A stretch of 64,000 nt of DNA from an uncultured Verrucomicrobiota bacterium (lineage in GTDB: Bacteria; Verrucomicrobiota; Kiritimatiellia; RFP12; UBA3636): NCBI GenBank assembly GCA_949285835.1, contig CASEAR010000041.1, positions 53,618 through 117,617 on the forward strand, given 5' to 3'. The position numbers and the translations under genes are program-made. Below the pieces are notes generated by a model that ran no database searches, had not been told where the DNA came from, and was given only the letters and a program-made list of their open reading frames with translations. Each line of letters begins with the position of its first letter. Positions within the stretch are counted from its first letter, which is position 1. Shown here piece after piece: positions 4,188-30,589 of the stretch.

Positions 4188-4233
4188 GAAGGCTTTGTGT
4201 ACTTTTTTCTCAGTTGTTTCAAATAAAAGAACA

Positions 4234-4282
4234 CGGGAAGGAAAACACCAAGCGGCAGCCGGTTCCTTCCCGCGGTTTTGTT
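4234..4282. terminator. Stem-loop terminator between the convergent ruvC and GH16 genes
   Basis: CGGGAAGGA (4234-4242) pairs with TCCTTCCCG (4264-4272), followed by CGGTTTTGTT. The same hairpin on the other strand is followed by a T-rich tract. Confidence 0.4.
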
Positions 4283-4305
4283 CACAACATTTTTGAACTG
4301 AATAT

Positions 4306-7768: not shown

Positions 7769-9970
7769 ATGAAAACGTATAGCAGATTTTGTTTATTTGT
7801 TGCTTTAACGGTCGTATCCGTGTATGCCGGTGCGCAATCTGCTGAGTGGACAGGAAACGGGAGCGGATCATTTTGGAGCGAGTCATCGAATTGGGCCGGT
7901 TTAAGATCACCTGAGAGTTCAAACAGTCTTGAAATTGTTTTCTCAGGAATGGGGGGACCTTCCGTGAACGACATTTCCAATCCTTTTGAAGTTGGTACAC
8001 TGCGTTTCGGTTCTTCTGCCGGTGCATTCGATATTGCCGGCGAGCCGCTTGAACTTTACAGCGGCATAGTTAATGTGTCCGCGAATGAACAGCATTTCTC
8101 TTCAAAATTGATTTTTGCTGCACCATCGAAAATTTCGGCCGGTGTCGGGATTGATGCGGCAGGCGGCATTACAAGCACGGACGAAGACTCCGTAATCACA
8201 ATCTCCGGTCAAAAACTGATTCTGAGCGGACAGAATTACCTTATGCTCGGAGAGCACGCACTTGGCGCTGATATAGATGTTGCCGTTAATGGCGGAAATA
8301 CCGAAAATATGGGCGCGGCGAATTTTTTCACAGCAAACGGGAACGCTTCGCTTACAATTAAAGACGGCGCTTTTTTCTGCTCTCCGGCAGGAATTGTTTA
8401 CGACAATGGAAGCAATTCCATTACTGTGAGCGGCGAAGAAACTGTTCTCAGTACGGATGGCGCCAATTTGTACCTGAACACCGGGTCTTCGCTTTTGGTG
8501 GACAGCGGGGCTGTCGTGACAAATGTTTCAGATCTGAGACTTGGAGACAATTCAAAATCGGATATCAGCCTGAATATCCTGAATGGAGGAAAAGTTTACG
8601 CAAATAAATTGACATACCGCGGCACCAGACGTGCAAATGTGAGAATAGCATCTCTTGGAAAAGACGGGACGCCGTCAAGACTTACTCTGGGATCTTTTGA
8701 ACCTGTCAATTATTCAGTATTTGATTGCGATGTTACTGTAGATGCGGGCGGAGAAATGATAGTATCCAATGCCATGAAGATCGGATATTCGTGGAGCTCC
8801 CCATGCGGCAGTAATTGCTGCGTCAGGATAATTAATGGTGGAATGGCGTTTTTTGGTGGTGAGATAACGTTAGGAAACAGCTCATCTTGCTCAAATCTCA
8901 TTCAGGTGGGTTCGTCAGATTCACAGAATGGTACTGAATCAATTTTGCGTCTGAACGCGGACAGTTTGTTCCGTATTGGCTGGGCCTCTGGTTTTGGGAA
9001 TCAATTTCTTATTGACAGTGGCGGGGTAGCAACTAACGGCAACGTGATTGTCGGTGATGAGCGCTCCGGAGAAGCTGTTGACAAGTATCTCGGATCTTCC
9101 ATGGTAGTAACAAACGGAGGACGATTTTTTGGACGTGTCCGCGTAGGGCTGCGCACAAATGGAGGAAAACTCATTTTGTCTGGAAAGGATTCTCTTATTG
9201 ACGCATGCGGATTGAATCTGGAGTCTGGCTCCGGCCGGGATAATCTGATAATAATTAACGATGGGGCCACGGCCGCTGGCATCAATGAAATAAGGGTTGG
9301 ATATGTTCAGCGGTCTCTGGCATATGCATACGGGAATGGTCTTGAGATCTCAGGCGGTGCAAAAGTATTTTCCTCCGGAGCGTGCTGTGTTGGCAGAACG
9401 GAATCTTACGAAAAAAGAATAAGCGGTAATAACTACGTAACCATGATTGGAAATGGAACGTCGTGGGATATGCAGGGAGGAAATTTACGTATAGGATATG
9501 CTAATTTTGCCAATACATACGCGACAAACAATTTTGCAACAGTGGGCGAGGGGGCCTCTCTGACAAATGTCAACGCACTGACCGTAGGATATAAAGTTGC
9601 CGTTGGAGCAGAAAAGAAGCCCGCCGTTTCGGAAGACAACAGGCTTATCGTTGCGGGTGGAAACATTTATTCTTCTTCAATGACTGTTGCATCAGGAAAT
9701 GTTTTTTCAATAGTTTTTTCCCGTGAATATGAATCCAAACCGGTAGAGGTTTCCGGTCGCGTTGTTCTTGAAGAGGGAAGTATAATTCAGCCTCTGGTAG
9801 ATGGTTCTGCAAATGACGGTGTTTACACGATATTGAAGTCTGGAGAACTAGTGGACAACGGGGTTATATTTGATCCGGGTAATTCTCCGTATGTGTACAA
9901 TTTCTTTATACGTGACAACTGTGCCTATATCAAGCTTTCAAATCCCGGAACTGTGGCAGTAATAAAATAG
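7769..9970 (+). CDS. Secreted beta-strand-repeat protein (autotransporter-associated beta strand repeat / pectin-lyase-like fold), function unknown
   Basis: Signal peptide (MKTYSRFCLFVALTVVSVYAGAQS), then the W.G.....W....NW opening motif, then long Gly/Asn/Thr-rich repeat modules. Confidence 0.5.
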   Translation: MKTYSRFCLFVALTVVSVYAGAQSAEWTGNGSGSFWSESSNWAGLRSPESSNSLEIVFSGMGGPSVNDISNPFEVGTLRFGSSAGAFDIAGEPLELYSGIVNVSANEQHFSSKLIFAAPSKISAGVGIDAAGGITSTDEDSVITISGQKLILSGQNYLMLGEHALGADIDVAVNGGNTENMGAANFFTANGNASLTIKDGAFFCSPAGIVYDNGSNSITVSGEETVLSTDGANLYLNTGSSLLVDSGAVVTNVSDLRLGDNSKSDISLNILNGGKVYANKLTYRGTRRANVRIASLGKDGTPSRLTLGSFEPVNYSVFDCDVTVDAGGEMIVSNAMKIGYSWSSPCGSNCCVRIINGGMAFFGGEITLGNSSSCSNLIQVGSSDSQNGTESILRLNADSLFRIGWASGFGNQFLIDSGGVATNGNVIVGDERSGEAVDKYLGSSMVVTNGGRFFGRVRVGLRTNGGKLILSGKDSLIDACGLNLESGSGRDNLIIINDGATAAGINEIRVGYVQRSLAYAYGNGLEISGGAKVFSSGACCVGRTESYEKRISGNNYVTMIGNGTSWDMQGGNLRIGYANFANTYATNNFATVGEGASLTNVNALTVGYKVAVGAEKKPAVSEDNRLIVAGGNIYSSSMTVASGNVFSIVFSREYESKPVEVSGRVVLEEGSIIQPLVDGSANDGVYTILKSGELVDNGVIFDPGNSPYVYNFFIRDNCAYIKLSNPGTVAVIK

Positions 9971-10555: not shown

Positions 10556-13213
10556 TCAGTCGTGTGCAAACATAGCGTAAACGCCCTGCATACCGCATGC
10601 ATACGAGTTTATGATGGAACGCGCCGTTTCAGACGCCGGATCACATGCAAAGAGTGCCTTTGCAAGATACAATTCCTTGAGCTGAGAATTTCTGTATGAA
10701 TTATCATTCCAGTCTGAATTGTTGGATGCAATTGATTGTGCATACGTACGAATAGCATATCCCTGCATACCTTTTTGGGCAAGGATCGACTCGAAGATTT
10801 CAGACATCGCATGGTCCGGATTTTTCATATAGAACAAGGCGACGGCGCGGATATGAGAAAACTCTGATTCCGGAGAAAGTTTTCTTGTCAGCGTGTCAAC
10901 ATATTCTATACCTTTGTGCAATGGGGCAAGGGCAAGTATCGCGGTATCGACACGGCTGGCGGAGAATCCAAACTGATGCATTCCCCTGTAGTTCCAGCCC
11001 TCGTCCCATTCTCCTTTCTCAAGGAGTTTCAAGAGAGCAGACACCCCCTTTTCGGATTTAAGAAATGTAAGAGTAAGTGCGGCTTCCAAGTCTTCTGGGT
11101 TTGACATAAGCCTTGATTCCATTTCTGGAATACCCTTGTCAGGAACCGAAAAGGCATATGATATTGTGTTATAGTCGTCATCTTCGTTGCGATTAAACTG
11201 TACATCGGTCTGCGTAATAACGGCTTCTTCGAGAATGCCCTCCTTTACGAGACGCCTCTGAAGTTCTTTAACGTCAATGTCCCTTATTGACTTACCTGAT
11301 TTCACAGACAAAGCTGCGGCGATTCCTGCGGCATAGCCCTGATTCTGGACATCGGGCTGCATTCTTATGAGAGGCATGCAATCGCGGTGTGCGCTTACTC
11401 CGAGTCCGGTAGCCGCAATTCCGTTGTATCCACGCGGCAAAAGAGCCCTGAGCGGCACGTCTGCATAATACCCTTCGTGTGCAGGCGGTTTGATCATGAA
11501 AATCGGATTTACAACGAATCCGTGGGTATCAAAGTTGCTTCTGGCCCGCACGATTGTGTCCGAGTATGTCCGCCCGGCAAAAAAGTCCCATGGCTGCAGG
11601 AAAATGTCGCCGATTATCTGACGGCGCTCCCGGGTGTTCAGTATTGTTGTAACATCGAAAAATTCAGTGAATTTATCGTGCGCTGATACAAATGCACGGG
11701 TCGTGTCCACAACATCTGTATCAAGTACGAATGTGAAATCAGTATTCGAGTAGTTCGAACCGAGTTCCACCGGCGAAAGACCTGCTCCCTGCACAACAGC
11801 TTCATCATGCATCTCACAGAATGTTTCAGCGCCGGCAGAGGCAGCAAAATCAGCGTTGCCTGTTGCGTCTATTACGAATGAGGATTTGATAACTCCAACG
11901 CCAAACGATCCAGCAACGACAGCTCCGCGCGCCTCATGTCCGCACATAACTGCTGCGATCGTCATTGTGTCGAAAAGCATGGAACATCCGGCTTTATCCG
12001 CTTGTTCAATGAACCATTCACTTTTCCAGGGAATATTCATATCTGGCGAATCAAGCGGAATATTGTTCTGTTCCGACATCGCACGCCACCCGGTGTCGAC
12101 CCTGCGAGTAAACCCGACAATGTTTCCCCAGCAGTATTTGCCTATCCGCCCGACAAGCATCACTCCACCTGGAGAACACTGATTTTCTGCGAGAATCACC
12201 GAGGCGCCGCTTTCTGACGCACCTATTGCAGCCGGCATGCCGCCGGTTCCGCCGCCAGCCACGAAGACATCGCAGGATCCGATTTCATCAAAACAATTCA
12301 GTTCAAAGTCAACCGTCCTGCAGTCGTTAAATCTGAACGAAACATCCTTTTTCACGATATCGATGCCTGTCCCGTAATCTACCTTTTTTTCGCCAAACCC
12401 TACAGGCTGCGTTCTGCTCGCAGATGATGTAAAGTGAGATATTTCGGAGCAGTCAGCTTTTATGAAGACAGGGATTTTTCGTGTAGGCGCCCAATTGGAC
12501 TGCAGATTGTCACCGCGTTCAATCTGTACGATGCTTGATGACGCAACACAGTCCGGTGACCACACCGCTTTGCGCAGCCCGGCGATGGCTCGGGCCTCGC
12601 AGAACGGATCCGGCGACGAAAGTTCCAGTTGTGCAGATATTTCATAAACCGCATATTTTCTGTTTTTCTCGATGACATCTGACGGGAGGCGCTTGACAGA
12701 AACGTTTCCGGACGAAGTACTAGCTCCGCCAATTGCAAACATTGTTGCTTTCTTCCGTCCAGGACAAAATTCCTCGTAAGGTACGCCTGACATCCTTGCA
12801 AAGGTGCCTCGTAGTGTTGCATCAACGATCACCTTAGCAGATACCGCGTGAAACCCAGATCTGTCTGCAAACAATGCTCCGCATATATTCCCGTCACAAT
12901 CAAACATTGGCCGAACGGGCCGTATATGAAACAAGAATTCGATTCCAGCGTCAATGATCAATTTATCTAGTTTACGTTTAATGTCGGATGGACGCAGAAC
13001 ACTCTCTGTCTTGAAGAGTGATACATATGATGAAGTTTTCGGAGACTGCAAATCAAGTGTTGCGCAGAGGTCTTCTCCAAAGTAAGAGAACTGTGTGGCA
13101 ATAAAAACTGAAAATCCATTTTTCTTCAGCTTTAATGCAGTATCTACGGCATCGGTTGTCCCGCCAATAATAAGAACATCTGTTTCAGCAATAACCGGGA
13201 CTTTAATTTTCAT
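10556..13213 (-). CDS. Large FAD-dependent oxidoreductase-family protein with two dinucleotide-binding modules
   Basis: N-terminal VLIIGGTTDAVDTALKLKKNGFSV and a second Rossmann motif, VFVAGGGTGGMPAAIGASESGASVILAE, in mid-protein. 885 aa, about twice a single FAD_oxidored unit. Confidence 0.55.
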   Translation of the reverse strand: MKIKVPVIAETDVLIIGGTTDAVDTALKLKKNGFSVFIATQFSYFGEDLCATLDLQSPKTSSYVSLFKTESVLRPSDIKRKLDKLIIDAGIEFLFHIRPVRPMFDCDGNICGALFADRSGFHAVSAKVIVDATLRGTFARMSGVPYEEFCPGRKKATMFAIGGASTSSGNVSVKRLPSDVIEKNRKYAVYEISAQLELSSPDPFCEARAIAGLRKAVWSPDCVASSSIVQIERGDNLQSNWAPTRKIPVFIKADCSEISHFTSSASRTQPVGFGEKKVDYGTGIDIVKKDVSFRFNDCRTVDFELNCFDEIGSCDVFVAGGGTGGMPAAIGASESGASVILAENQCSPGGVMLVGRIGKYCWGNIVGFTRRVDTGWRAMSEQNNIPLDSPDMNIPWKSEWFIEQADKAGCSMLFDTMTIAAVMCGHEARGAVVAGSFGVGVIKSSFVIDATGNADFAASAGAETFCEMHDEAVVQGAGLSPVELGSNYSNTDFTFVLDTDVVDTTRAFVSAHDKFTEFFDVTTILNTRERRQIIGDIFLQPWDFFAGRTYSDTIVRARSNFDTHGFVVNPIFMIKPPAHEGYYADVPLRALLPRGYNGIAATGLGVSAHRDCMPLIRMQPDVQNQGYAAGIAAALSVKSGKSIRDIDVKELQRRLVKEGILEEAVITQTDVQFNRNEDDDYNTISYAFSVPDKGIPEMESRLMSNPEDLEAALTLTFLKSEKGVSALLKLLEKGEWDEGWNYRGMHQFGFSASRVDTAILALAPLHKGIEYVDTLTRKLSPESEFSHIRAVALFYMKNPDHAMSEIFESILAQKGMQGYAIRTYAQSIASNNSDWNDNSYRNSQLKELYLAKALFACDPASETARSIINSYACGMQGVYAMFAHD

Positions 13214-13339: not shown

Positions 13340-14095
13340 TTATCGGGCGCTTACAAATGCACGGAAAAACAAATCAAACGGCCCTGCCATTTTGCCAAAA
13401 CGTACAGTATTCCCACTAGCTAGAACAGCCATGATTTGTTCCGTCAGAGGTTTCTGCGTATCTAATTTGCCATTCCAGAATTCTGCATATTGTCCGACAC
13501 GCATAGCTTCATCAGAGCCTGGCAGGGGATCAGATCCAGCGACAATTTTGTACTTTGCGGCCGCTGCCTTTTTCATAATCGCCGGTGCGGGCAGAAAAGA
13601 CGGTCGAAGTGAAGTATCGCCAATAACAATCTGGTCTGGAGAAAACTCATCAAGGATTTTTCGAACAATTCTACTTCTCTTAAACATCCATTTACCGAGT
13701 CCCCATGCCAGAACTGGCAGGCAGTTTACGCATAAAGCCTCGCGTACTGCTTCTGATACCGGGATTCCGTTTTCAAAAATATGGGTTGTACCCAGAGCAA
13801 GTATCTCAACTCGTTCCCGACATTCAATTTGGCGTCCAGACACCACTACAACATCTGGAGCACCTTTATTTTTCAGAAGTATTGACGTCTCATCGGAAAC
13901 AACTACATCCGTTCCCGGCGGTAAATTTTTACCGAGTGTCCATGTCTCAAACATATTTGTGCCGCTCCGCTCTGTCAACATCATGACTCCGCAAGACGAT
14001 TTTGAACGTATTACGTTATCCCTGAAGGCGTTGAAGACAAGCGACGGATCATATTCCGGATATATGTGTACGTGAGTATCAATAAGTGCAGGCAT
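13340..14095 (-). CDS. Metal-dependent hydrolase (amidohydrolase/TIM-barrel-like)
   Basis: MPALIDTHVHIY carries the N-terminal metal-ligand motif. 251 aa. Its start is 3 nt downstream of the CPBP gene stop. Confidence 0.45.
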   Translation of the reverse strand: MPALIDTHVHIYPEYDPSLVFNAFRDNVIRSKSSCGVMMLTERSGTNMFETWTLGKNLPPGTDVVVSDETSILLKNKGAPDVVVVSGRQIECRERVEILALGTTHIFENGIPVSEAVREALCVNCLPVLAWGLGKWMFKRSRIVRKILDEFSPDQIVIGDTSLRPSFLPAPAIMKKAAAAKYKIVAGSDPLPGSDEAMRVGQYAEFWNGKLDTQKPLTEQIMAVLASGNTVRFGKMAGPFDLFFRAFVSAR

Positions 14096-14098
14096 CTT

Positions 14099-14785
14099 TC
14101 ATGTTTCCAAAAATCGAATCGTCCCACTGTAGAAAAACTGTCCCCATCCAATAGTGAAAATCAGGTTGCCGTACATTGCATGCTCAATGGCCGAGGCGGC
14201 AAAAGATTGTGTTTTCCTGTATGTGGACAGGAACAAAAGCCCTCCTAAGAAGGTGAATACAAGCGCATACATATTGACGAATACAATATGTGCAAACGAA
14301 AAAGCTGCGGCGCCTGCAAACAGCGAGACTTTACTTGAGAAGAGTTCTGCATAGCGATACTCGTAGAGGACTCGATAAAGTATTGTCTGCGGGATAACAG
14401 AAAGAATCGGGTAACAAAACACTACCAGAAGCCATAACTTCGGGTTTTGGGTTGGAAATGAAAACAGCAAGGTTTTGTCTAATTTAAGAAGAAGAAATAT
14501 CAGGAGCAGCGCTGCAAACATAAATCGGGGAAAGATCGTGTGCCAAAAAAAACAAATGTCAAAACCTCTGAGAAATATTTTTTTGTCAAATCCTGACGAT
14601 GTCAGCAAGTACACTAATGCGCATCCTCCAAATGTGATCAGTATAGATATAACACCGATCTTAATGCGAATACCAAACCTGCTGAATGCCGGGGGTAAAA
14701 TGGACACGCACAGGGGGAGAACCGCATACAGTAAAATAAACTCAAAGTATCTTAGGCTTCGCTTCATTCTCGAAAAATACGGCAT
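14099..14785 (-). CDS. CPBP-family intramembrane metalloprotease (CAAX protease/Abi-like)
   Basis: Multi-pass membrane protein. Motifs YEYRYAE (EExxxR-like), FSFAH (FxxxH) and HAMYGN (HxxxN) are in the expected order. Confidence 0.5.
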   Translation of the reverse strand: MPYFSRMKRSLRYFEFILLYAVLPLCVSILPPAFSRFGIRIKIGVISILITFGGCALVYLLTSSGFDKKIFLRGFDICFFWHTIFPRFMFAALLLIFLLLKLDKTLLFSFPTQNPKLWLLVVFCYPILSVIPQTILYRVLYEYRYAELFSSKVSLFAGAAAFSFAHIVFVNMYALVFTFLGGLLFLSTYRKTQSFAASAIEHAMYGNLIFTIGWGQFFYSGTIRFLET

Positions 14786-15825
14786 TATTCTTCCACAGAT
14801 TCAATGTCACCGTCAGAAGGAAGCTCGATGTCAGAAGATACAGAGACATTCTCCTGAGTTACAATGTGTTCTGAATGTACAACGGAGGAAACGTTTGTTT
14901 CTTTGTTTCCGCCAAAAGCTCTGCCGATAAATGAAAATCCGTCAGCAACCGCGCCACCGACAGCTTTTGCGCCGGATGCGACTCCTCCAACAACGGTTTC
15001 GCCGGCGTCGTAAACAAACGTCCCGGTTTTCACTGCAGCATTCCCAACAGCTTTTGCCCCGGAAGCAACGGCGCCTCCCGTGCTTTTGACTCCGTCAATC
15101 GCAAATCTTCCAACGTCCCCAACCGCATCCGAAGCGCCCTTTAACAGGTTTCCTCCGGCATCTATTATTCCGTTGCCAGCGTTTCCAACGTGTTTAACAA
15201 TTTCACCCACAATAGAGCCGGAGATAAGTGCAATTGCTTTAAAAGCGGTTATCCCTCCGCCCGTTTCTCCGATGTTGGTCAGAGTAATCTGCGGAATGGT
15301 TACGACAACACCGCGGCCGCCGAAGAATGATGCGGCAACTTTTACCTTTGAATCCGTGAGTGAGAGTAATTTGACAACAACAGTTTTTCCTTTTGTGTCA
15401 CCATCATCTGGTTCCGGCTTCGTCTCAGAATCATCAGAAAAACGCGATAGTAGGACAGACAAGTTGCTATCTTTCCCAGAAATTTCATAAGTTATCTCCG
15501 GCGCGTTGACAACAATCTTGTTTATCACTATTTTATCAGAAAGCAAGGAACGCACGGAGCAATTTACATGTGCGTCTTCGATGTAAACCATGTTATTTTT
15601 GAAATTTTCGGCGGGGGGGCCGATCTTAAGTCCGCTTATAAAAATATCACCAGAAATCAGGTTAACGGATACCTTTTCAACAGAAACATCGGCTCCCAGC
15701 ATTTTTGAGCCGTACGTTTCAGCTATCTGCTTGATATGTGAGCCAAGATGAAAAGCCGCATAGAAAAAAGCCGCGGTTAGGAGGAGTAACAAAACCGCGA
15801 CAACTGCTGCTATTTTTTTTAACAT
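14785..15825 (-). CDS. Membrane-anchored protein with an AsmA-like N-terminal domain and a Gly/Ala-rich repeat C-terminus
   Basis: ATG at 15825 (verified; MLKKIAAVVAVLLLLL is a TM or signal sequence). LGADVSVEKVSVNLISGDIFISGLKIGPP...KIVINKIVVNAPEITYE resembles the AsmA N-terminal domain. GGAVASGAKAVGNAAVKTG-type repeats follow. Its stop overlaps the CPBP start. Confidence 0.45.
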   Translation of the reverse strand: MLKKIAAVVAVLLLLLTAAFFYAAFHLGSHIKQIAETYGSKMLGADVSVEKVSVNLISGDIFISGLKIGPPAENFKNNMVYIEDAHVNCSVRSLLSDKIVINKIVVNAPEITYEISGKDSNLSVLLSRFSDDSETKPEPDDGDTKGKTVVVKLLSLTDSKVKVAASFFGGRGVVVTIPQITLTNIGETGGGITAFKAIALISGSIVGEIVKHVGNAGNGIIDAGGNLLKGASDAVGDVGRFAIDGVKSTGGAVASGAKAVGNAAVKTGTFVYDAGETVVGGVASGAKAVGGAVADGFSFIGRAFGGNKETNVSSVVHSEHIVTQENVSVSSDIELPSDGDIESVEE

Positions 15826-15969
15826 TTTTCGCTCCAGATAAATGAATTCACACCACGCAACGAAAAACAACCCAACTTCCGAGATGGTAACGCAATGCAT
15901 TGTGTTTGTCACGTACAATAGCATGCTGACAGTTGTCGGCAAAGTTGCAGAATGTAACGTCCATACCCA

Positions 15970-16165
15970 AAGGAAGGATTACAGACATGAAAAGAAACGC
16001 CCAAAAGAGGTGCATCCGCATTGCCGTCATGCGCGCGGATCATTCTTGGAAAACAGTGATGTTTCGCTTTCTGCTAAAATGGAAGTTGAAACAATATCCA
16101 CGCAGAAAGGAAACATCATGGCGGGGTATAGCAAATATTCTCATCCCCGCACACATCTTAAATTT
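15970..16165 (+). repeat. Conserved intergenic element, copy B (about 75-80% identical to the reverse complement of 32087-32290)
   Basis: Direct nucleotide comparison of the two loci. Shared blocks include CGCCCAAAAGAGG, ATGCG.GC.GATCATT, CGCTTTCTGCT.AAATGGA, CGCAGAAAGGAAACATCAT and ATATTCTCATCC...CATCTTAAATTT. Contains an 8-bp stem, CTTTCTGC/GCAGAAAG. Confidence 0.6.
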
Positions 16166-16229
16166 GGAAACCGCGAACGAACACATATTTCCTTGCCAGA
16201 GGACGAACACAAAGATATCATCTCACCAA

Positions 16230-16832
16230 ATGTTTCGCTATCCGTACAAAATTCTAAAGATATGTTCCCTTCATGCGGCAACTGCATTCTGGACAGCGTA
16301 TACGCGTCTTGTTTTGCGACTGAACGGGGTTCAGTTCGGGAAAAAACTTAAAGCCGTAGGGCGTCCGATCGTTAACGTCTCTATTGGCGGAAAGGCGTTC
16401 TTCGGACGAAATTTGTACATCCGCACAGGCGTTCGGTATACTGAAGTCGGGGCCGCCGGCAGCCGCATACTCGTCGGTCCTCAGGGCACGTTGACAATCG
16501 GTGACAATGTAGGCATGTCAAATGCCACGATCGTTGCGGACCAGTCAGTATCCATTGGCAGCCACGTTCTTATCGGAGGAGGAGTACAGATATTCGACAC
16601 CAATTTTCATTCCACTGATACATCGGTCCGCACGGGAGGGAATGAGACAAGAAAAGACGCAAGAAAAGCTCCGGTAGTCATCGAAGACAACGTTTTTATA
16701 GGAACGAACGCCATAATTTGCAAGGGCGTGACAATCGGACGCAATTCAATCGTGGCGGCAGGATCTGTCGTCGTAAAAACCATACCCCCAAATGAAATCT
16801 GGGGCGGCAATCCAGCACAAAAACTTTCGTAG
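16230..16832 (+). CDS. Hexapeptide-repeat (left-handed beta-helix) sugar O-acetyltransferase
   Basis: [40 protein letters not shown]...[31 protein letters not shown] are hexapeptide repeats. ATG at 16230 (verified) gives 200 aa. The ORF stays open upstream through the repeat element. Confidence 0.7.
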
Positions 16833-16954
16833 CCTGCGTCTCCTTGTTTTCTCCCAGAGCTTCGTCCCTGCCCACGATTGGAAGGCTACGGCTTGCGTAT
16901 ACTTGTGTTATCTCTTATAATCGGAGACCAATGTAAACGCAGACCAGAACAGTT

Positions 16955-17269
16955 ATGACAGACAGTTCCAACGAAAAAAACAACAGTGGGAAAGAAGTCG
17001 GTATAACGACTTTTTTCTGCGCCCTCAGCTTTGGTGCGGTGCTTCAATCAACGGCACTGGTCAAAGTGGTACGTTCCTTCGGACACGATGCCAAAATACT
17101 GAACTTACAGCCAAAGAGGCGCTTATTTTCCGAAAAAATTTCACTTTTACATTTGGTGAGGAATTTTCTTTATTTGCTTCATATACGATCATACAAACGG
17201 AAGGTTAACAGATTCGACGAGTTTATCCGAACAAATCAAGTACTCACGCGCCGTTATTTTTCTCCTTAA
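16955..17269 (+). pseudogene. Possible N-terminal fragment of a pyruvyl-transferase-like protein, separated from the downstream ORF by a single in-frame TAA
   Basis: GITTFFCALSFGAVLQSTAL resembles the N-terminus of polysaccharide pyruvyl transferase family proteins. Same frame as 17291-18484, with one stop at 17267-17269. Confidence 0.25.
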
Positions 17270-17290
17270 CGTCCATCCAATGGAAAATGT

Positions 17291-18484
17291 ATGAGATGGT
17301 ACACCTGCACACCTGTTGCTTATAAAGGGAACAATTCCTTTTTCAACAGAGATTCCGGCTTATTCTGCCGCGCATTTCAAGAAATCGGCATCGACAGCCG
17401 GGCCGTTATGCCATTACCCGTTCAAGAAGGAGACGAACCGGACTTAATCCGAACAGAGTACAATAATCTGAAGTCTTCCGAATGGTGGAAAGCACAGCAA
17501 ATTGATGGAGTTCTGCTTTATGCATGGACCAAGACTTGCTATACGCCAATAGCCAAGGCAATCCATGAAAGCGGTGCAAAGCTTATTCTGTATTTTGACA
17601 CTGGTTCCTGCATCTATCCATGGCAGAACTGGAGATGGGGAACATATCTGACGTTCCGCAAATGGAAATTTTCACATCCGAGGTTGTACATTATACTTGG
17701 ATGTCTGGATGTGCTGCGTGCCAATTTTCTGACACCGTTAAACTATATACGTCGAAGGCAGCACATTGAATATGGAGACTTGATTGGCATACCCTTTCCT
17801 GCGGCGATCGAAGTTTATAAAAAAATTCCGATCCTGATGAGCCACAAAAGCAAATCTCGCATTCAGCTCACCCCTGCGCCGATCGCTTCTCATTTTGTGT
17901 ACGATGCCTCTGTAGGAAAAGAAAATCGTGTCATAGCCGTCGGACGCTGGGATGACGAAGAACCCAAAAGACCACGTTACATGATGTCGGCATTGAAACA
18001 GTTCACTCAGCGAGTTTCCGATGTACAGGTTGATATTTTTGGGAAAATACCGGAATTTATGAGTCTTTGGCACAGACAATTGCCTGAAAAAATACGAGGC
18101 AGAATCACTCTGCACGGCGTTATCCCTAATCCGAAGCTGCAAGAATACTACCAGAAAGCAAAGATTTGTCTTTGCCCATCCATACACGAGAGTACGCACC
18201 TTGTCTCCGCAGAGGCAATATGCTGTGGTTGTTCCGTCGTCGTCGCCCCATGCCCTTCGCTGTCATGCATACATTGGTATACCTCTGCAAGGTCCGGAAC
18301 TATCGCAAATGCCGACACCTCGGAATGTTTCGCAAACGCTATAGAAAACGAGTACGTGTTCTGGGAGCGAGGAGAAAGGAATCCTTTCGAAATCTCCGCC
18401 TTTTGGACTCAACAACTTCACGCAGTGAACACTCTGCGCCGAATACTGCCTTATGTCTCCAATTCATGCGGATCCGGCACATAA
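17291..18484 (+). CDS. Glycosyltransferase group 1 (GT4-like)
   Basis: C-terminal ESTHLVSAEAICCGCSVVVAP resembles the GT1 E-x7-E/EAxxxGxPVV motif. Confidence 0.45.
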   Translation: MRWYTCTPVAYKGNNSFFNRDSGLFCRAFQEIGIDSRAVMPLPVQEGDEPDLIRTEYNNLKSSEWWKAQQIDGVLLYAWTKTCYTPIAKAIHESGAKLILYFDTGSCIYPWQNWRWGTYLTFRKWKFSHPRLYIILGCLDVLRANFLTPLNYIRRRQHIEYGDLIGIPFPAAIEVYKKIPILMSHKSKSRIQLTPAPIASHFVYDASVGKENRVIAVGRWDDEEPKRPRYMMSALKQFTQRVSDVQVDIFGKIPEFMSLWHRQLPEKIRGRITLHGVIPNPKLQEYYQKAKICLCPSIHESTHLVSAEAICCGCSVVVAPCPSLSCIHWYTSARSGTIANADTSECFANAIENEYVFWERGERNPFEISAFWTQQLHAVNTLRRILPYVSNSCGSGT

Positions 18485-18527
18485 GAGTTCTCACAATTCT
18501 CAAACCTCTAAATGAGAATGCCGAATA

Positions 18528-19751
18528 ATGAAAATCCTCTGGTTTACGAATACACCTTCAAATTACAGTTTAGACTCTTCAGGATACGGAGAAGGAGGAT
18601 GGATTAGCTCTCTTGAGACAGAGATGCGCAAGCACAAGGAAATTCAACTTGCAGTCGCTTTTTTCCATAGAGACACATGTTTCAAAAAGTCCTGTGAAGG
18701 CGTTGTCTATTACCCAATGCATAAAGCCAGCTCTTTGATTTCAAAGACAGATCGTTTCTTTCGAATTTCTGCACAGGACGAAAAAGAAATAAGTCTCTGC
18801 ATGAAAGTGATTGAAGACTTCAAACCTGATGTGATACATATATTCGGGACAGAATCGTGCTTCGGGCTGCTCTGCAAGAGAACAAACATCCCAACGGTTC
18901 TACATCTTCAAGGTTTGATGGCGCCTTGCATAAATGCCTGGGTTCCTCCTTTTTATTCGCTGACAGACTATTTTTTTGCAGAAGGTTTTTCTCCTTCCAG
19001 GGTAGTGCTGAGAATTCGCGGATGGGCATTTAACCGTCATGCCGCAGAACGAGAAAAAGAAATAATGCGGTCCTGCAGGAATTTTATCGGACGTACGGAC
19101 TGGGATAAGTCATATGTTTCGATTTCTGCTCCTCACGCCAGGTATTTTCACTGCGATGAAATCCTCCGCCCAGCGTTTTATGTGCCCGGCACACGAAAAA
19201 AAGCGTCGCGTCCTACATTTGTATCCACATTGTCCAGTCCGCTCTACAAAGGTCATGACATGGTATTGAAGACAGCAAAAATATTCAAGGATACATGTGT
19301 TTCTGATTTCGAATGGCACATTTACGGTATTTCATCTATTCGGTTAGCTGAAAAAAAAACAGGCATTCGCGCTACTGATGTAAACGTCGTCTGCAAAGGC
19401 ACTGCATCTGCAGAAAAGCTCAGAGAAGCACTTTTGTCATGTGACGCATATATCCACCCCTCATATATAGATAACAGCCCAAACAGCCTCTGCGAAGCAC
19501 AAATTCTGGGAGTTCCTGTTCTCGCGACCCATGTTGGCGGCGTCGGAACAATGATGGGAGAAGACGCCATTGACAGCATTGTTCCCGCCAACGATCCGTA
19601 CCAAATGTGTTTCAAAATGGTCCAGATAATACAAAACAATAAAGAGTTCGACACATCAAAATCCAAAATGACAGCTGCAGCACGCCATTCGCCTGAAAAA
19701 ATCACACAGACACTTTTTTCCATCTATGAAGCAGTTTCCCGAGAAGCCTGA
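18528..19751 (+). CDS. Glycosyltransferase group 1 (GT4-like)
   Basis: IDNSPNSLCEAQILGVPVLATHVGGVGTMM is a GT1 C-terminal nucleotide-sugar-binding motif. 407 aa. Confidence 0.6.
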   Translation: MKILWFTNTPSNYSLDSSGYGEGGWISSLETEMRKHKEIQLAVAFFHRDTCFKKSCEGVVYYPMHKASSLISKTDRFFRISAQDEKEISLCMKVIEDFKPDVIHIFGTESCFGLLCKRTNIPTVLHLQGLMAPCINAWVPPFYSLTDYFFAEGFSPSRVVLRIRGWAFNRHAAEREKEIMRSCRNFIGRTDWDKSYVSISAPHARYFHCDEILRPAFYVPGTRKKASRPTFVSTLSSPLYKGHDMVLKTAKIFKDTCVSDFEWHIYGISSIRLAEKKTGIRATDVNVVCKGTASAEKLREALLSCDAYIHPSYIDNSPNSLCEAQILGVPVLATHVGGVGTMMGEDAIDSIVPANDPYQMCFKMVQIIQNNKEFDTSKSKMTAAARHSPEKITQTLFSIYEAVSREA

Positions 19752-19754
19752 ACA

Positions 19755-21302
19755 ATGACTCCAAAAACAAGGATCGCGCTGAATATCTGCGCAACATATT
19801 CTCAGTCTCTAGTATCAGTCGGCCTGGGGCTTTTTACAAGCCGATGGGTTCTTCATGCGCTTGGTGAAACCGATTTTGGAATTTTCAGCCTGATCGGCGT
19901 CTTGATTACATTTGTCGTTTTGATCAGCAACGTCATGGGAACAAGTGTAACCCGACACCTTGCTTATGCGATCGGTCAATCTGAACATTTGCCATACATC
20001 AAACAAAAAAATTATATCTCTGAATGGTTTAATGTCGCCATATTTACGCACTTGTTTCTTGCCGGAATACTCTCCTTGACAGGGCTATTTATCGGACATT
20101 GGTACATTTACAACCACTTGAACATTCCTCCGGAAAAAATACCTGCGTGTATCTGGGCTTTTCGATTTGCTTTGGCAAGCGCGTTCGTGTCTATAGCTTG
20201 CTCCCCTTTTAATGCAATGTATACCGCAAGGCAATACATTTTCGTCCGCAACTTCTTTTATATTTTTTTGTCCGTTTTTTTGGCCATAGAAGCCTTCTTG
20301 CTTTCACTGTTCCAGTCAGACCGCCTTTTCTGGCACGCACTTATCGTCTCGTCCATCAACACTGCCGCTCCCATTGGACTGGGTTGTCTCGCCGTCCTAC
20401 AGTTTCCTGAATGCAGAATTCACATAACCAAAATATTTGACCGTTCTAAATTTTTTGAACTCTTTTCATTCGGAGCTTTTTCACTTTTCGGTCTCGTCGG
20501 GAATATGATGCGTAATCAGGGAGTGTCCATAACACTTAACAAAATCTCCGGCCCGACCGCAAATGCGGCTTTCGGCATAGCCAATCAGGTGTCACATACG
20601 ACAATGACTCTTTCAAACGGAATAACATCCGCAATACAGCCGGAAATCACGAGACTTATTGCCAACGGGAATCATGAAAACGCACAGTATCTCGCACTCC
20701 GGGCAAGTTTCTTTTCATGTGCTGCCATTTTGCTTATTTTCTTTCCTATTTGTCTGAATATTCATTTTTTACTGTCACTTTGGCTGGAATCCTACCCTGC
20801 ACTGTCCCCAGCATTCTGCGTAACTTTCTTATGTCTTTCTTTAATGGAAGCCACTACGGTAGGTCAGGGAATGCTGATAAACTCAAGCGGCAGAATTGCA
20901 TTTTACCAGACGTCATGCGGCATTGTCCTTATGACATCTGTTATGCTGGTGGTCGCGGCATCACGAGCAGGATTCTCAACAGCTTCTTCTGTTGCAATCG
21001 GAATTCTGGCAACGGATGTCATCGTCGCATCCGTGCGCCTGTTTATTGCACATAGACTTATGCTTTGCAATCCGATTTTATGGCTGCGTCAGGTTATAGT
21101 TCCCATGCTATTACTGTCCGTCTTTTCTTTTTTCATTGTATATGCCATCAAATCCATTTGCAAACCCAGCCTTTTTATCATCTTCATTGAATCTGCTTTA
21201 AATGCATTGGGGCTGATATGCTTTTCATTATTTTTCTTAACCTCAAAAGAACGGACGTTTATCAGAAGTCATATACAGGGTCTTATAAAATTTAGAAAAT
21301 AA
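19755..21302 (+). CDS. Polysaccharide biosynthesis protein / Wzx-type oligosaccharide flippase
   Basis: 515-aa polytopic membrane protein with a polysaccharide-export-type N-terminus (MTPKTRIALNICATYSQSLVSVGLGLF) and about 12-14 hydrophobic segments. Confidence 0.6.
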   Translation: MTPKTRIALNICATYSQSLVSVGLGLFTSRWVLHALGETDFGIFSLIGVLITFVVLISNVMGTSVTRHLAYAIGQSEHLPYIKQKNYISEWFNVAIFTHLFLAGILSLTGLFIGHWYIYNHLNIPPEKIPACIWAFRFALASAFVSIACSPFNAMYTARQYIFVRNFFYIFLSVFLAIEAFLLSLFQSDRLFWHALIVSSINTAAPIGLGCLAVLQFPECRIHITKIFDRSKFFELFSFGAFSLFGLVGNMMRNQGVSITLNKISGPTANAAFGIANQVSHTTMTLSNGITSAIQPEITRLIANGNHENAQYLALRASFFSCAAILLIFFPICLNIHFLLSLWLESYPALSPAFCVTFLCLSLMEATTVGQGMLINSSGRIAFYQTSCGIVLMTSVMLVVAASRAGFSTASSVAIGILATDVIVASVRLFIAHRLMLCNPILWLRQVIVPMLLLSVFSFFIVYAIKSICKPSLFIIFIESALNALGLICFSLFFLTSKERTFIRSHIQGLIKFRK

Positions 21303-21337
21303 CGAAGTCTATTTGGGGTCTGCTGAACTGGAAGGGA

Positions 21338-22690
21338 TCATGCTGCATTTTGCCAAAACGGCAGGATGAGCGGTTCCAGCGCTATGAAAAATAGCGGCCG
21401 GAATCGGAAGGGCAAAAAAGTTTCAGTGTTCCACCTCCATCGGATCAAGTTCGCCGCAAGGAATGTCATGGCGATAGCAGTTTCAGAACAATCTCTGCGC
21501 CAAGCCATAACCCGTCCCTGCCCAAAGCGTCGTTTACACTGCCCAAATTTTCCCTCAATGGCATTGCGAGCAGAATTGTCGGTGAGCTGCTGCTTGAGAA
21601 TTTCCGGATTCACGATTTTTGCAGGCCGCCCGAAACGCGGCCCGGAAAGCCTGATCCCATGTTCTGCGCAATATCGCAGATTTTCTCTGGTGCGCAACAA
21701 CTTGTCTGCCGGAACAGCTTCCGGATAATGCCCCGTTCGGGCACTATAGCGTTCACAAATCATTTGCAGATCGCAGCCTTCATTGTATGCGTCCCATGAC
21801 AGTCGTCTATTCTTGCATACCCATTATCCAAACTGGCGGTTAGTTTTGCTCCGAATTCGGTTTCATGTCCGGCCTTGCCGCGCACGATCGGACGAACATG
21901 CGGCTGATGCAAACTGACAATTCGCTCATCAATGCGCCTCGAATGAGTCTCCAGCATAGTTCACTGTTGCTCGTAAACGGTTCGGATCACGATCAGCTGT
22001 TCTGAAATGATTTGCAGGATATCCCCGCAACGATCACGCAGCTTTGCTATGAACCCCAGATTCCGGCGGATGGCGTTGAGCAGAAAATGCAAAGCTACGC
22101 GACGTTTTGATACGCTTCACTTCGGATGTTTGATGTTCTCGTGATAACGCTTGCGGCAGATTTCCCGTTTCGTCCGGGCCGGGGATCCCTGTCGCCGCAT
22201 TGTTCACGCAATTTGTCGATAACTGCCTCTGTGAGTTCCTGCGCTTCGTGACCAGATTCAAATCCGTCGGATACTTGATGTCTGCCGGCGCACAAGTCGC
22301 ATCCATCAGAATTGTTCCGGAATTTTCTGCCTCACCTGCACTTGCATTCTCTGGCGGGACACCGCCTCTGTCCCTAGGAGGGTTCTCTTCCGGACTGTTG
22401 GATTTTTTCGACAACTCGATTATCTTGTCATTCAACGACATCACAACTTCTCTGGGCAGGCGTTTGCGAAAATGCGTCAGCAGCGCGGCGCTGAACGGGG
22501 CCTTCGTCTGGAAGCTCTTGAAGCCGAGAAAATATTGAAGATACGGATTTTCAATCACGCTTTCCACTGCTTCACGATCGCTCAGACCAAGTATTTCCTT
22601 GATCAGCAAGGCGCCAAGTGCAATACGCACATTCAAAGCAACATCGCCTCGTCCATGGCTTTTGAAGTGTCTGGCATATTCTGCCTCCAT
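21338..22690 (-). mobile_element. Degraded IS5/IS1182-type transposase gene, split into three minus-strand ORFs
   Basis: N-terminal DUF772-like LLIKEILGLSDREAVESVIENPYLQYFLGF. DDE region LMDATCAPADIKYPTD. C-terminal NAIEGKFGQCKRRFGQGRVMA...AANLIRW. The three ORFs (22034-22690, 21760-21957, 21338-21763) together span about 450 codons. Confidence 0.65.
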
Positions 22691-23029
22691 CTCTTCCTAG
22701 GGAACAAGACCGGCCATTTTTACCCAGCGGTTTTCCGGATTCAGACGTCCTGAAAAATACAGACCAATCTCCGGTAATTCCTGATTCCGGCACGTTTTTC
22801 GAAACATCTCTCTTTCCTTACTGCCCTTTTTCAGGAATATGATACTGCATAATCAGATCTTTTCTGCCGCATTCAGCAGACCATAGCTATACAAAAAAAT
22901 GACATCAGGAAGAGCCATGCTACGTACAAAGTTCACATGAGACACAGCGAGACTCACCAATTTTAGATCGCGCAGAGATGGCATTACCCCAAACACGCAG
23001 AATACATGGAACTGGAATAAGAAAAACGC

Positions 23030-24112
23030 TCACTTAGTTTCTTCGAAAAATTCTCGTAAATGACCGTAATAATCTCTTTTGAAAATTTGAGGAAGAGACG
23101 GCATCCGTTCAGAATCAGAAAGGATTTTCTGGACCATCCCTTTTGCTTCTCCCAAATTCTTTGCGTAATAAACGTACTTGGAAAAAGATTCCGGATACCA
23201 TTTGACGCCGCTCGACAACTTATGATCTATAGAATCTATCACAACAACCGGTGTGCCCGCCGACAGCGCAAAGATTGTACCATGATACCTATCAGTCAAT
23301 ACAACCTTGAATGACGACATAGATGAGATAAAAGAATCTATTAAGGACCGTCTGTTCCTGCACATTTCTTCTGCAGACACGTTAACGTTTGTATCAGCTT
23401 GCTCAACACGAATTCCGTCAAAATTACGCATTAAGTCCGCTATTTCTTCCTTGGAATATTTTGCCTCTCCATCGTTTCGTAAACAAAACAAAATTCCGTC
23501 TCTTGGTTTATCTGCGTAAGACTTTTCCCCAATCTTTGTCGTGACAATATCCGGAAACGGACGCAGCCGGCAAGACTTAAAAGAGCGTTTCGCTTTCTCA
23601 TACGAGACAAAATCACGACACAGCATCGTAACACGGCCGTGTCGGTTAAGAACACTCGAACAACTCATTTCAATCCAAGGATTAAGGAAATTCACTGTTA
23701 CCGGCATAATCAAAATAGGAGTTCGCTCGCAATAATATGCAGCGCGTGCAAAAATCAACCAACAAGCACTGTGATCTATAAAGTGATAGCCGCTGTTCCC
23801 TATAATGATGTCTCCGCGTCTTTGCGAAAAACGCATTACGTTAAAAAGAAGACCTGCCATAAGCGATCTAGTGACGAAACCATGGACTTGCGCGACACAA
23901 GTAGACGCAGTATTCACGGGAATAAGAATGAGCCTATGTCTGGGATAATTCTCTTTTATCCATTCTGCGATGCACAATAGCTGCGCATTATCTCCCAAGT
24001 TCGTGTTATCTGTAGCCCCTAGAAAATAGGCCTTGGGACGAACGGAAAATAGTATTCGGAAAATCACCGAAAAATAATTGCACAGGGCACCGCATATACG
24101 CCTCAATCGCAT
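23030..24112 (-). CDS. Polysaccharide pyruvyl transferase family protein (CsaB/WcaK-like)
   Basis: YFLGATDNTNLGDNAQL is the N-terminal G..N.GD motif. 360 aa. Confidence 0.5.
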   Translation of the reverse strand: MRLRRICGALCNYFSVIFRILFSVRPKAYFLGATDNTNLGDNAQLLCIAEWIKENYPRHRLILIPVNTASTCVAQVHGFVTRSLMAGLLFNVMRFSQRRGDIIIGNSGYHFIDHSACWLIFARAAYYCERTPILIMPVTVNFLNPWIEMSCSSVLNRHGRVTMLCRDFVSYEKAKRSFKSCRLRPFPDIVTTKIGEKSYADKPRDGILFCLRNDGEAKYSKEEIADLMRNFDGIRVEQADTNVNVSAEEMCRNRRSLIDSFISSMSSFKVVLTDRYHGTIFALSAGTPVVVIDSIDHKLSSGVKWYPESFSKYVYYAKNLGEAKGMVQKILSDSERMPSLPQIFKRDYYGHLREFFEETK

Positions 24113-24134
24113 TTTTTCTCCTTGCGTTCATTCA

Positions 24135-30509: not shown

Positions 30510-30589
30510 GAAACGTCTCCTTTGTCCAGATTTCAGCCTCCCGCAATAACAAAATTCGCCGGCATTCCTGATTTGCCCAAACGGATGCT

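Follow-up and report, generated by a model that had tools for sequence, protein, structure and literature searches.

Membrane proteins of the CPBP fold include active glutamic endopeptidases, such as the myxosortase MrtX, MrtJ and Rce1, as well as homologs with broken active-site motifs, such as SpdC/LyrA, LnsB and SpbR of Staphylococcus aureus, which are non-proteolytic, work non-catalytically and are paired with the envelope enzymes SagB, LnsA (lipoprotein N-acylation) and SpsB, respectively (PMC12260438). Here we describe a gene trio, g1-g2-g3, in which a CPBP-fold protein (g2) is encoded between a small AsmA-like membrane protein (g1) and a PHP-fold metal-dependent enzyme (g3). The trio lies in a 64,000-nucleotide stretch of DNA (hereafter, the window; positions 53,618 to 117,617 of the forward strand of contig CASEAR010000041.1, GenBank assembly GCA_949285835.1) from an uncultured Verrucomicrobiota bacterium of the Kiritimatiellia, whose members live in guts and sediments, are little studied and are for the most part uncultured. 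Within a narrow clade of Kiritimatiellia/Lentisphaerae-type bacteria, this arrangement of the genes is genuine and selected. We tentatively read the trio as a module for envelope lipids or glycolipids that is specific to the clade and in which g2 does not act on g1 as a classical protease.

Closest described systems

AsmA-like proteins are related to the chorein-N lipid-scoop fold. With YhdP, TamB and AsmA, and with the chorein-N domains of the eukaryotic Vps13 and Atg2, g1 can be compared in that its N-terminal membrane anchor is followed by a beta-rich lipid-scoop domain. The AsmA-like bridges, however, are 600-2,000 residues long, whereas the groove of g1 covers ~150 residues and is followed by a tail of 11-residue repeats that varies in length; unlike the AsmA-like lipid transfer proteins, g1 also lacks a C-terminal DUF490-type domain.

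The PHP family is defined by further His ligands in addition to the N-terminal ones, including those of a C-terminal D-x-H motif. PsfC (7RTY), TM0559 (2ANU), EndoQ and RNase AM share their fold with g3 (TM-score 0.5-0.65, E 1e-7 to 1e-4), and PsfC and g3 both have an N-terminal D-T-H-V-H followed by a T-E motif, but g3 differs from the PHP enzymes in having neither a further invariant His nor a Pfam PHP match. PsfC is a dinuclear iron oxidative decarboxylase of fosfomycin synthesis, and oxidative chemistry of this type is unlikely in these anaerobes. A further point of comparison is offered by two-step pathways in which a GT4 glycosyltransferase acts as the synthase and a phosphatase follows, such as sucrose-phosphate synthase/phosphatase and MshA with its subsequent phosphatase. 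The g3 family resembles these pathways in that a GT4 gene is adjacent in 29 of 80 loci and is fused to g3 in one protein, P0205; the phosphatases of the known pathways, however, are of the HAD rather than the PHP type, and the genomes of the trio clade do not have the GT4 partner next to g3.

Competent CAAX-type proteases require the motifs EExxxR, FxxxH and HxxxD/N (PMC12260438), and the first Glu, the motif-2 His and the H/N pair form the catalytic set (PMC11980579). With MrtX, MrtJ and Rce1, g2 shares the PF02517 domain, the fold, FxxxH, the motif-1 Arg and the motif-3 His, but it lacks the catalytic Glu and the oxyanion Asn, and g1 lacks the Cys-containing tripartite C-terminal signal. Like SpdC/LyrA, LnsB and SpbR, g2 is a protein of the CPBP fold in which EExxxR and HxxxD/N are not intact; the S. 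aureus proteins are polytopic, as g2 is predicted to be. In the S. aureus proteins, however, the motifs are degenerate and variable (in SpbR, HELYMR, FIYLD and QIVAI), whereas Q133, G206 and E201 of g2 are strictly conserved; the g2 subfamily is large and phylogenetically wide, and its hosts in the present case are diderm bacteria of the Planctomycetes-Verrucomicrobia-Chlamydiae (PVC) group, unlike S. aureus.

The gene trio and its conservation

The genes and their junctions, called from the table of open reading frames (ORFs) and the sequence, are as follows (window positions).

14785..15825, minus strand: g1 (15825-14785), 346-aa bitopic membrane protein, small DUF748/AsmA-like, with a Gly/Ala repeat tail (ORF, Pfam)
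14783..14787, minus strand: TAATG junction, g1 stop and g2 start with one base in common (sequence)
14099..14785, minus strand: g2 (14785-14099), 228-aa predicted polytopic membrane protein, CPBP/Rce1-like fold, variant-motif subfamily (Pfam, hhalign, hydropathy)
14096..14101, minus strand: g2 stop TGA and 3-nt spacer ahead of the g3 ATG (sequence)
13340..14095, minus strand: g3 (14095-13340), 251-aa cytoplasmic PHP-fold metal-dependent enzyme of an unnamed family (AlphaFold2, Foldseek)

A GGAG precedes the g1 ATG at 15835-15832. The g1 TAA (14787-14785) and the g2 ATG (14785-14783) overlap by one base, and the g2 TGA (14101-14099) is separated by 3 nt from the g3 ATG (14095-14093). The longest g1 ORF opens at a TTG at 15942 (385 aa); the ATG form of 346 aa is the one in the public protein collection, where g2 and g3 are also recorded as called proteins of the same 122.7-kb NCBI/ENA contig, and two metagenome contigs in ENA encode identical g2 and g3 proteins. 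Because each of the three has many homologs with strong E-values (269 for g3, with E down to 1e-74, 50 for g2 and 25 for g1), they are genuine genes rather than chance ORFs. Promoter and terminator scans gave counts close to the shuffled expectation and are not used as evidence.

Synteny was analyzed for the best 80 of 353 genome loci with a g3 relative, with iterated hidden Markov model searches for the partners, and, from the side of g2, for the best 80 of 496 metagenome relatives. A g2 homolog lies directly upstream of g3 in 11 of the 80 genome loci (L003-L011, L015 and L023), and in 10 of these 11 a g1 homolog lies upstream of g2; L010 has g2-g3 and ends at the contig end. All three genes are also present on the metagenome contig L147. 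The order is always g1-g2-g3. Six loci have a g2-g3 gap of 1-4 nt and four have one of 35-40 nt; the gap in L015 is not informative, because the g3 start is uncertain there and the longest ORF for g3 extends 50 nt into g2. Identity to the window proteins is ~44-53% for g3, 41-47% for g2 and ~30-34% for g1. Downstream of the trio, at least five different neighbors are found (an M20 peptidase, a 913-aa ORF, a 560-aa ORF, an opposite-strand ORF and an FAD oxidoreductase), with the M20 peptidase and a CxxCxxCC protein in four trio loci and the FAD oxidoreductase, of 885 aa, in the window. The hosts are related metagenome-assembled genomes (MAGs) from gut, rumen and digester samples.

The tightly coupled three-gene unit that the first-pass annotation had recognized from the stop/start overlap and the 3-nt gap is thus preserved, in the same order, in 10 genome loci and in L147 (g2-g3 only in L010). 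The synteny in other genomes on which that annotation had made its proposal depend exists within one clade and not outside it: 69 of the 80 g3 loci have no CPBP or g1 neighbor, and 79 of the 80 CPBP loci have neither partner. A more widely conserved system was considered and discarded, the trio being found only in the nearest relatives among the best 80 g3 and best 80 CPBP loci.

This pattern bears on the possibility that the three genes have no joint function and are unrelated housekeeping genes of the envelope and metabolism that came to be packed into one transcription unit in an ancestor of the clade, with the order simply inherited. Each family mostly occurs without the other two, the trio is confined to related gut, rumen and digester MAGs, and the neighbor-joining tree of g3 contains a sister subclade whose g3 lost these neighbors. 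However, the arrangement and its tight spacing persist down to ~30-50% protein identity while both flanks change, and stop/start overlaps or gaps of 1-4 nt are retained in several lineages. We consider passive inheritance of the order to be rather unlikely.

g1: an AsmA-like protein with a single scoop unit

Four parts can be distinguished in g1.

15757..15813, minus strand: transmembrane (TM) anchor, ~aa 5-23, preceded by Lys-Lys (hydropathy peak 2.66 at aa 5-23; AlphaFold2 helix 2-43, predicted local distance difference test (pLDDT) ~90)
15256..15693, minus strand: beta-rich N-domain, ~aa 45-190, chorein-N/AsmA-like lipid-scoop fold (AlphaFold2 strands 51-185, pLDDT ~84-95; Foldseek)
14917..15246, minus strand: Gly/Ala/Val-rich repeat tail, ~aa 194-303, ending in the family motif IGRAFGG (sequence, periodicity)
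14788..14916, minus strand: polar/acidic C-terminal end, aa 304-346, without Cys, TM segment or basic cluster (sequence, hydropathy)

The Pfam family DUF748 matches g1 with 57.3 bits (cut-off 50), residues 2-164 aligning with profile positions 14-167 of 1037; the YhdP and AsmA matches in Pfam are weaker, below their cut-offs, and all fall within residues 2-164, and the NCBIfam family TIGR03545 matches the N-terminus only, at 50 bits against a cut-off of 173. The AlphaFold2 model, built from 23 sequences, is confident over residues 1-210 (pLDDT ~84-95), where a long helix at the N-terminus leads into a beta-rich domain; for the repeat tail, a helix is predicted, but with pLDDT below 50. When this model was compared with the PDB using Foldseek, the sole significant matches were an N-terminal fragment of Vps13 (6cbc) and the N-domain of Atg2 (6a9j, with bound phosphatidylethanolamine, and 6a9e), with E-values of 1.4e-4 to 5.5e-4 and low TM-scores (0.2-0.3), the alignment covering part of the model. 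The profile match, hydropathy and the model agree with the first-pass description of the 346-aa protein as consisting of a TM anchor, an AsmA-like N-domain and a repeat tail.

The C-terminal part of g1 carries Gly/Ala-rich repeats of the GGAVASGAKAVG type, with autocorrelation periods of 29 and 11 residues in the window protein; most homologs that were sampled show periods of 11 and 22. The homologs, of 256-471 aa, have one common architecture: a basic N-terminus, one TM helix and a conserved domain of ~170 residues ending in I-G-x-x-x-G-G-x-T, followed by a helix, a Gly/Ala/Val-rich array of (D/G)GAKAVGGAAV-type units, an end of the G-[LIMA]-[FL]-G-G type and a short polar tail. In the near-identical strain L002, whose g2 and g3 proteins are identical to those of the window, the 3' part of g1 contains a 120-bp tandem repeat (at least 2.2 copies, 94% matches; positions 1-259, corresponding to window ~14950-15080), whereas the window holds a single unit without a tandem array, so that the length of the g1 tail varies even within the species.

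The beta structure of g1 amounts to only ~150 residues, that is, the first ~15% of the 1037-position DUF748 profile, and the remaining 150 residues are low-complexity repeats, which is not the long groove of a periplasm-spanning protein. The protein is held in the inner membrane by one N-terminal helix and exposes one chorein-N/AsmA-like lipid-scoop domain. Going by the structural model, it is best described as a 'mini' AsmA-like protein, a single scoop unit with a spacer-like tail, rather than a periplasm-spanning bridge. In the literature searched, no function is assigned to small DUF748 proteins, nor is a link between AsmA-like and CPBP proteins described.

The relatives of g1 with an informative context, in Oceanibacterium L089, L090/L091, L175 and L176, have no adjacent CPBP gene in any of the four cases; in L174 and L088, the contig ends right after g1, so that these loci are uninformative in this respect. 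Wherever the neighborhood can be interpreted, it points to the envelope: L174 has lspA and a DUF4340 gene, and L176 has a TP_0789-like gene together with genes for a Mur ligase and LpxC. A 227-aa gene near the g1 relative of L176 was considered as a hidden CPBP and rejected, its product being a secreted soluble protein. The caveat of the first-pass annotation, that the repeat protein might be a generic AsmA paralog, is largely borne out outside the one clade: small DUF748 proteins with repeat tails make up a widespread family, which includes g1 and whose members elsewhere occur without a CPBP.

g2: a CPBP-fold protein with replaced active-site residues

The three motifs of g2 align with those of canonical CPBPs as follows.

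14372..14389, minus strand: motif 1, Q133-T-I-L-Y-R138 at the place of canonical E-E-x-x-x-R (hhalign, PQTILYR versus YEEIFYR)
14288..14302, minus strand: motif 2, F162-S-F-A-H166, canonical FxxxH kept (hhalign, FSFAH versus FTIIH)
14168..14185, minus strand: motif 3, E201-H202-A-M-Y-G206 at the place of canonical HxxxN/D (hhalign, EHAMYG versus IHGLTN)

The Pfam Rce1-like family PF02517 matches g2 with 28.9 bits (cut-off 22.4), residues 117-205 covering profile positions 3-90 of 93, and hydropathy reveals five to six hydrophobic segments (16-34, 43-61, 84-102, 117-135 and 167-185), with Q133 and H166 at segment edges. The fetched loci contained no canonical CPBP with which g2 could be aligned, and a PDB sequence search with the g2 profile was empty as well; the canonical comparators were three annotated CPBP genes from Bacillus and Paraclostridium plasmids, retrieved with an artificial consensus-like query. 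Their hhalign comparison with g2 gave a probability of 96.1% and an E-value of 3.6e-9. In the aligned columns, Gln replaces the general-base Glu, Thr replaces the second Glu, and Gly replaces the oxyanion Asn.

These replacements characterize a whole subfamily. Among 119 sequences, 80 of which were collected by scanning metagenomes with a C-terminal seed pattern outside the scored columns, Gln133, Arg138, His166, His202 and Gly206 are each present in 119, Phe162 in 118 and Glu201, directly before His202, in 116; the second position of motif 1 is Gly in 92 and Glu in 17 members, and the residue after G206 is C, D or N. In a separate alignment of 26 g2 relatives, Q133, R138, F162, H166, H202 and G206 are invariant and E201 is nearly so.

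The sequence comparison indicates that g2, although clearly of the CPBP fold, is missing two defining features of the protease family, because the Glu of EExxxR is Gln and the Asn of HxxxN/D is Gly. The first-pass identification of a CPBP protease accordingly stands with respect to the fold but not with respect to the catalytic Glu and the HxxxN/D Asn/Asp, and the associated suggestion that the repeat protein is the substrate of this protease lacks support, given that g2 and the 119 subfamily members compared lack the catalytic Glu (Gln133-Thr134 in g2) and the Asn/Asp (Gly206).

The conserved replacements nevertheless leave room for a version of the same idea, in which g2 is an active, re-wired hydrolase, with the Gln133 amide standing in for the oxyanion Asn and Glu201 for the general-base Glu, that trims or releases the repeat tail of g1. 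The two genes are adjacent, translationally coupled and kept in order in the clade; the invariance of Q133, H166, H202 and G206 and the presence of E201 in 116 of the 119 sequences form the pattern of a functional site rather than of decay; every g1 relative ends with a motif of the G-[LIMA]-[FL]-G-G type followed by a variable polar end; and CPBP proteases are often encoded next to their substrates, as in the case of MrtX (PMC11980579). Set against this, both residues that are essential in characterized CPBP proteases are absent from g2, and g1 lacks the tripartite C-terminal signal (Cys motif, TM helix and basic cluster) of the known CPBP 'sortases'. The G-x-F-G-G end and the repeats also occur in g1 relatives without a CPBP neighbor, the g2 subfamily occurs without g1 in 79 of the 80 metagenome loci and in the Gluconobacter and Pseudoalteromonas replicons, and g3 is left unexplained. 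We regard this version as very doubtful. A sorting-signal model of the myxosortase kind was rejected on the sub-cut-off scores of g2 against the NCBIfam models Mrt_core (18.9 bits against a cut-off of 100) and MrtJ (19.4 against 75) and on the C-terminus of g1, which has no Cys and no hydrophobic segment.

A broader variant gives the altered site a role beyond g1. The g2 subfamily would be a widespread, unrecognized CPBP branch marked by a swap of the catalytic carboxylate and the oxyanion amide between helices, the TM4 Glu being replaced by Gln, the TM7 Asn by Gly, and a new Glu appearing immediately before the TM7 His. The result would be an active Gln/Glu/His/His intramembrane hydrolase that, in the Kiritimatiellia clade, joins the mini AsmA-like scoop and a PHP phosphoesterase in an undescribed module for processing and export of envelope lipids or glycolipids. 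Such a re-wired site is conceivable because the replacements are strictly conserved, a carboxylate lies beside the second His, and an amide occupies the former place of the carboxylate; we give the proposal as a whole little credence.

Outside the trio clade, g2 relatives at no more than 41% identity (P0131 and P0165) have unrelated neighbors; the closest metagenome relatives (L093, L096 and L097; 42-52% identity) lack g1 and g3; and the copies in Gluconobacter and Pseudoalteromonas, on plasmids and chromosome-like replicons, are solitary. Near the distant g2 and g1 relatives P0131, P0165, P0181, P0191, P0182, P0176, P0180 and P0193, the partners are likewise absent. Variants with the Gln/Gly/Glu combination are widespread, on Gluconobacter and Caballeronia plasmids, in Pseudoalteromonas and on many peat and soil metagenome contigs (e.g., L172 3737-4354 and L173 3707-4348; L092-L171). 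In L093, a methyltransferase gene (3658-4593, minus strand) lies beside the g2 relative, and the C-terminus of its product resembles the methyltransferase cluster c10, which neighbors g3 in several loci without the trio; this hints at a looser neighborhood network.

g3: a PHP-fold enzyme linked to GT4 glycosyltransferases

The first-pass annotation had described g3 as a TIM-barrel-like metal-dependent hydrolase with an IDTHVH motif, an assignment that proves to be essentially correct and can be made specific as the PHP fold, a distorted (beta/alpha)7 barrel. The AlphaFold2 model of g3 is of high confidence (pLDDT 95.2, predicted TM-score 0.92), and all 12 Foldseek matches at E<=1e-3 are PHP-domain structures: chains of PsfC 7RTY, which comes closest (E 1e-7, TM-score 0.63-0.65), TM0559 2ANU and EndoQ 5zb8, and the PHP domain of RNase AM, 7ug9. 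The best match in a PDB sequence search is also PsfC, at a sub-significant E-value of 1.4. The N-terminus of g3 reads MPALIDTHVHIY and includes the predicted metal site.

14066..14080, minus strand: D6-T-H8-V-H10 at the end of strand 1, predicted HxH metal site of the PHP/amidohydrolase type (invariant in 42 sequences; aligns with PsfC VVDTHVH)

The invariant residues in the 42-sequence alignment include D6, H8, H10, Y12, E42, Q89, E97, K135, W136, D160, R164 and D189, and a C-terminal motif, G-S-D189-P-L-P, is conserved. H8 and H10 are the only invariant His residues, so that the alignment does not provide the further His ligands by which the PHP superfamily is recognized. From this conservation, the remaining metal ligands are likely to be the carboxylates E42, E97, D160 and D189, accompanied by K135 and several Arg, and the invariant Lys and Arg suggest an anionic substrate. 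None of the 42 family members has a Pfam match at E<=1, and NCBIfam contains no g3 family, one weak sub-threshold match being taken as chance. The Pfam check that the first-pass annotation had recommended places g1 in DUF748 and g2 in the Rce1-like family, both above the cut-offs, and g3 in no family. The family is large, with 2,509 members, 2,007 of them at E<=1e-30, in a profile search of 1.84 billion cluster representatives. Because hydropathy detects no hydrophobic segment, g3 is taken to be cytoplasmic.

In the loci without the trio, a recurrent neighbor of g3 is a GT4 glycosyltransferase, with 37 genes in 29 of the 80 loci, mostly at position -1 or +1. Other neighbors are an HpnA-like epimerase of the short-chain dehydrogenase/reductase (SDR) family (20 loci), a CsaB/WcaK-like pyruvyl transferase, GT2 and methyltransferase genes, a G3P-dehydrogenase-like flavoprotein, MurC/B, Ddl and hexapeptide acetyltransferase genes. 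In P0205 (694 aa), GT4 and g3 are fused, with the g3 part C-terminal; the GT4 part has a weak match to MshA (38.6 bits). The recurrent GT4 neighbors and this fusion identify a GT4 enzyme as the main functional partner of the g3 family. By analogy with the GT4 synthase/phosphatase pairs, the partnership would fit g3 acting as a phosphatase on a glycosylated phospho-intermediate. In a Desulfobacteraceae MAG (L077 1969-3498), g3 continues in frame into an HpnA-like SDR epimerase, which is either a fusion or a sequencing error.

A possible envelope lipid or glycolipid module

From the folds, motifs, topology hints and gene linkage that we observed, we infer, tentatively, a substrate, a direction and physical interaction for a clade-specific module. 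On the cytoplasmic side, g3 would take the phosphate off a phosphorylated sugar, glyco or lipid intermediate. The membrane-embedded partner of g3 would be g2, either as a non-proteolytic scaffold or regulator comparable to SpdC, LnsB and SpbR, or as an enzyme of altered chemistry, and g1 would receive or position the lipid product at the periplasmic face. Cleavage of g1 by g2 is made less attractive because the catalytic residues are missing, the tail and end motif are common to the whole g1 family, and g3 would have no role; g1 and g2 are probably not a protease-substrate pair.

Several observations weigh against this module. In g2, the replacement residues have not decayed but are strictly conserved, which argues for retained chemistry that could still be proteolysis. 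The trio loci contain no GT4 gene of the c1 type within ~7 kb, and the GT4 genes of the window, which are on the opposite strand, are unrelated by BLAST to the GT4 partner family of g3. PsfC, the closest solved relative of g3, is an oxidative diiron enzyme and not a phosphatase. In the g3 tree, the trio-linked genes fall into two groups that form a paraphyletic part of one subclade, and a 12-member sister subclade lacks g1 and g2, often with RNase Y upstream instead; with the linkage confined in this way, common descent may account for some of the conservation.

The surroundings of the trio

A polysaccharide-type locus (15933-25571) is divergent from the trio and contains the following recognizable features.

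15933-16832: hexapeptide acetyltransferase
17291-18484 and 18528-19751, opposite strand to the trio: two GT4 genes
19755-21302: 515-aa multi-TM flippase-like ORF
22034-22690, minus strand: DUF772 transposase fragment
23030-24112, minus strand: PS_pyruv_trans gene

This locus raises the alternative that g3 serves glycan synthesis next door, as a CpsB-like PHP phosphatase or a sugar-phosphate phosphatase, with g1 and g2 as bystanders. The g3 relatives elsewhere are indeed accompanied by GT4, PS_pyruv_trans, SDR epimerase and hexapeptide acetyltransferase genes, and genes of the same kinds lie 2-10 kb away in the window. However, the GT4 and pyruvyl transferase proteins of the window have no BLAST match at E<=1e-3 to the partner clusters of the g3 family, nor does the flippase-like protein match neighbors of other g3 genes, the sole exception being the acetyltransferase, with weak similarity to proteins next to g3 elsewhere. 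Comparable glycan genes are absent from the vicinity of the other trios, and the top 50 Foldseek matches of g3 include no structure of the CpsB/YwqE type. We judge a dedicated role of g3 in this locus to be improbable and retain, as a tentative preference, the envelope module in which all three genes take part.

On the other side of the trio, 126 nt downstream of g3 and on the same strand, lies the gene for the 885-aa protein (10556-13213, minus strand), which has two Rossmann/FAD_oxidored regions; a distant relative (26% identity, 468 aa) follows the g3 homologue in L078, a locus without the trio. Two proteins encoded further away are probable surface proteins: a 733-aa secreted-looking protein without a Pfam family (7769-9970, plus strand) and a 479-aa protein with a passenger-associated transport repeat (PATR; 29286-30725, minus strand).

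The base composition of the window changes abruptly, G+C rising from ~0.44 to ~0.55 within ~1 kb near 26 kb (25400-27000), with a mean of ~0.46 in the first 26 kb versus ~0.58 in 26000-64000. The low-G+C part holds the trio and the adjacent glycan genes, but also ETF and RuvC genes. The step could mark an acquired island or an assembly join. The 64-kb window contains no tRNA genes.

Implications

No description of this gene combination was found in the literature searched, in agreement with the first-pass impression that it is not a described system. As it stands, the trio is no new kind of system but an ordinary clade-specific operon of uncharacterized envelope genes. Each of the three proteins falls into a known superfamily; what is distinctive is the CPBP variant with its invariant Gln/Gly/Glu and the unnamed, GT4-linked PHP family.

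For the CPBP family, the immediate consequence concerns annotation: members of the g2 subfamily are labeled 'CPBP family intramembrane glutamic endopeptidase' by PGAP, so that a large subfamily is automatically named after a Glu that it does not have, and it presents a testable case of active-site re-wiring. For the g3 family, the Rosetta-stone link to GT4 enzymes is a lead toward sugar-phosphate or lipid-phosphate phosphatase activity. If the trio is one unit, it would bring together, in one envelope process of the Kiritimatiellia, three poorly understood groups: small single-unit AsmA/chorein-like proteins, non-classical CPBPs and an unnamed PHP family of ~2,500 clusters.

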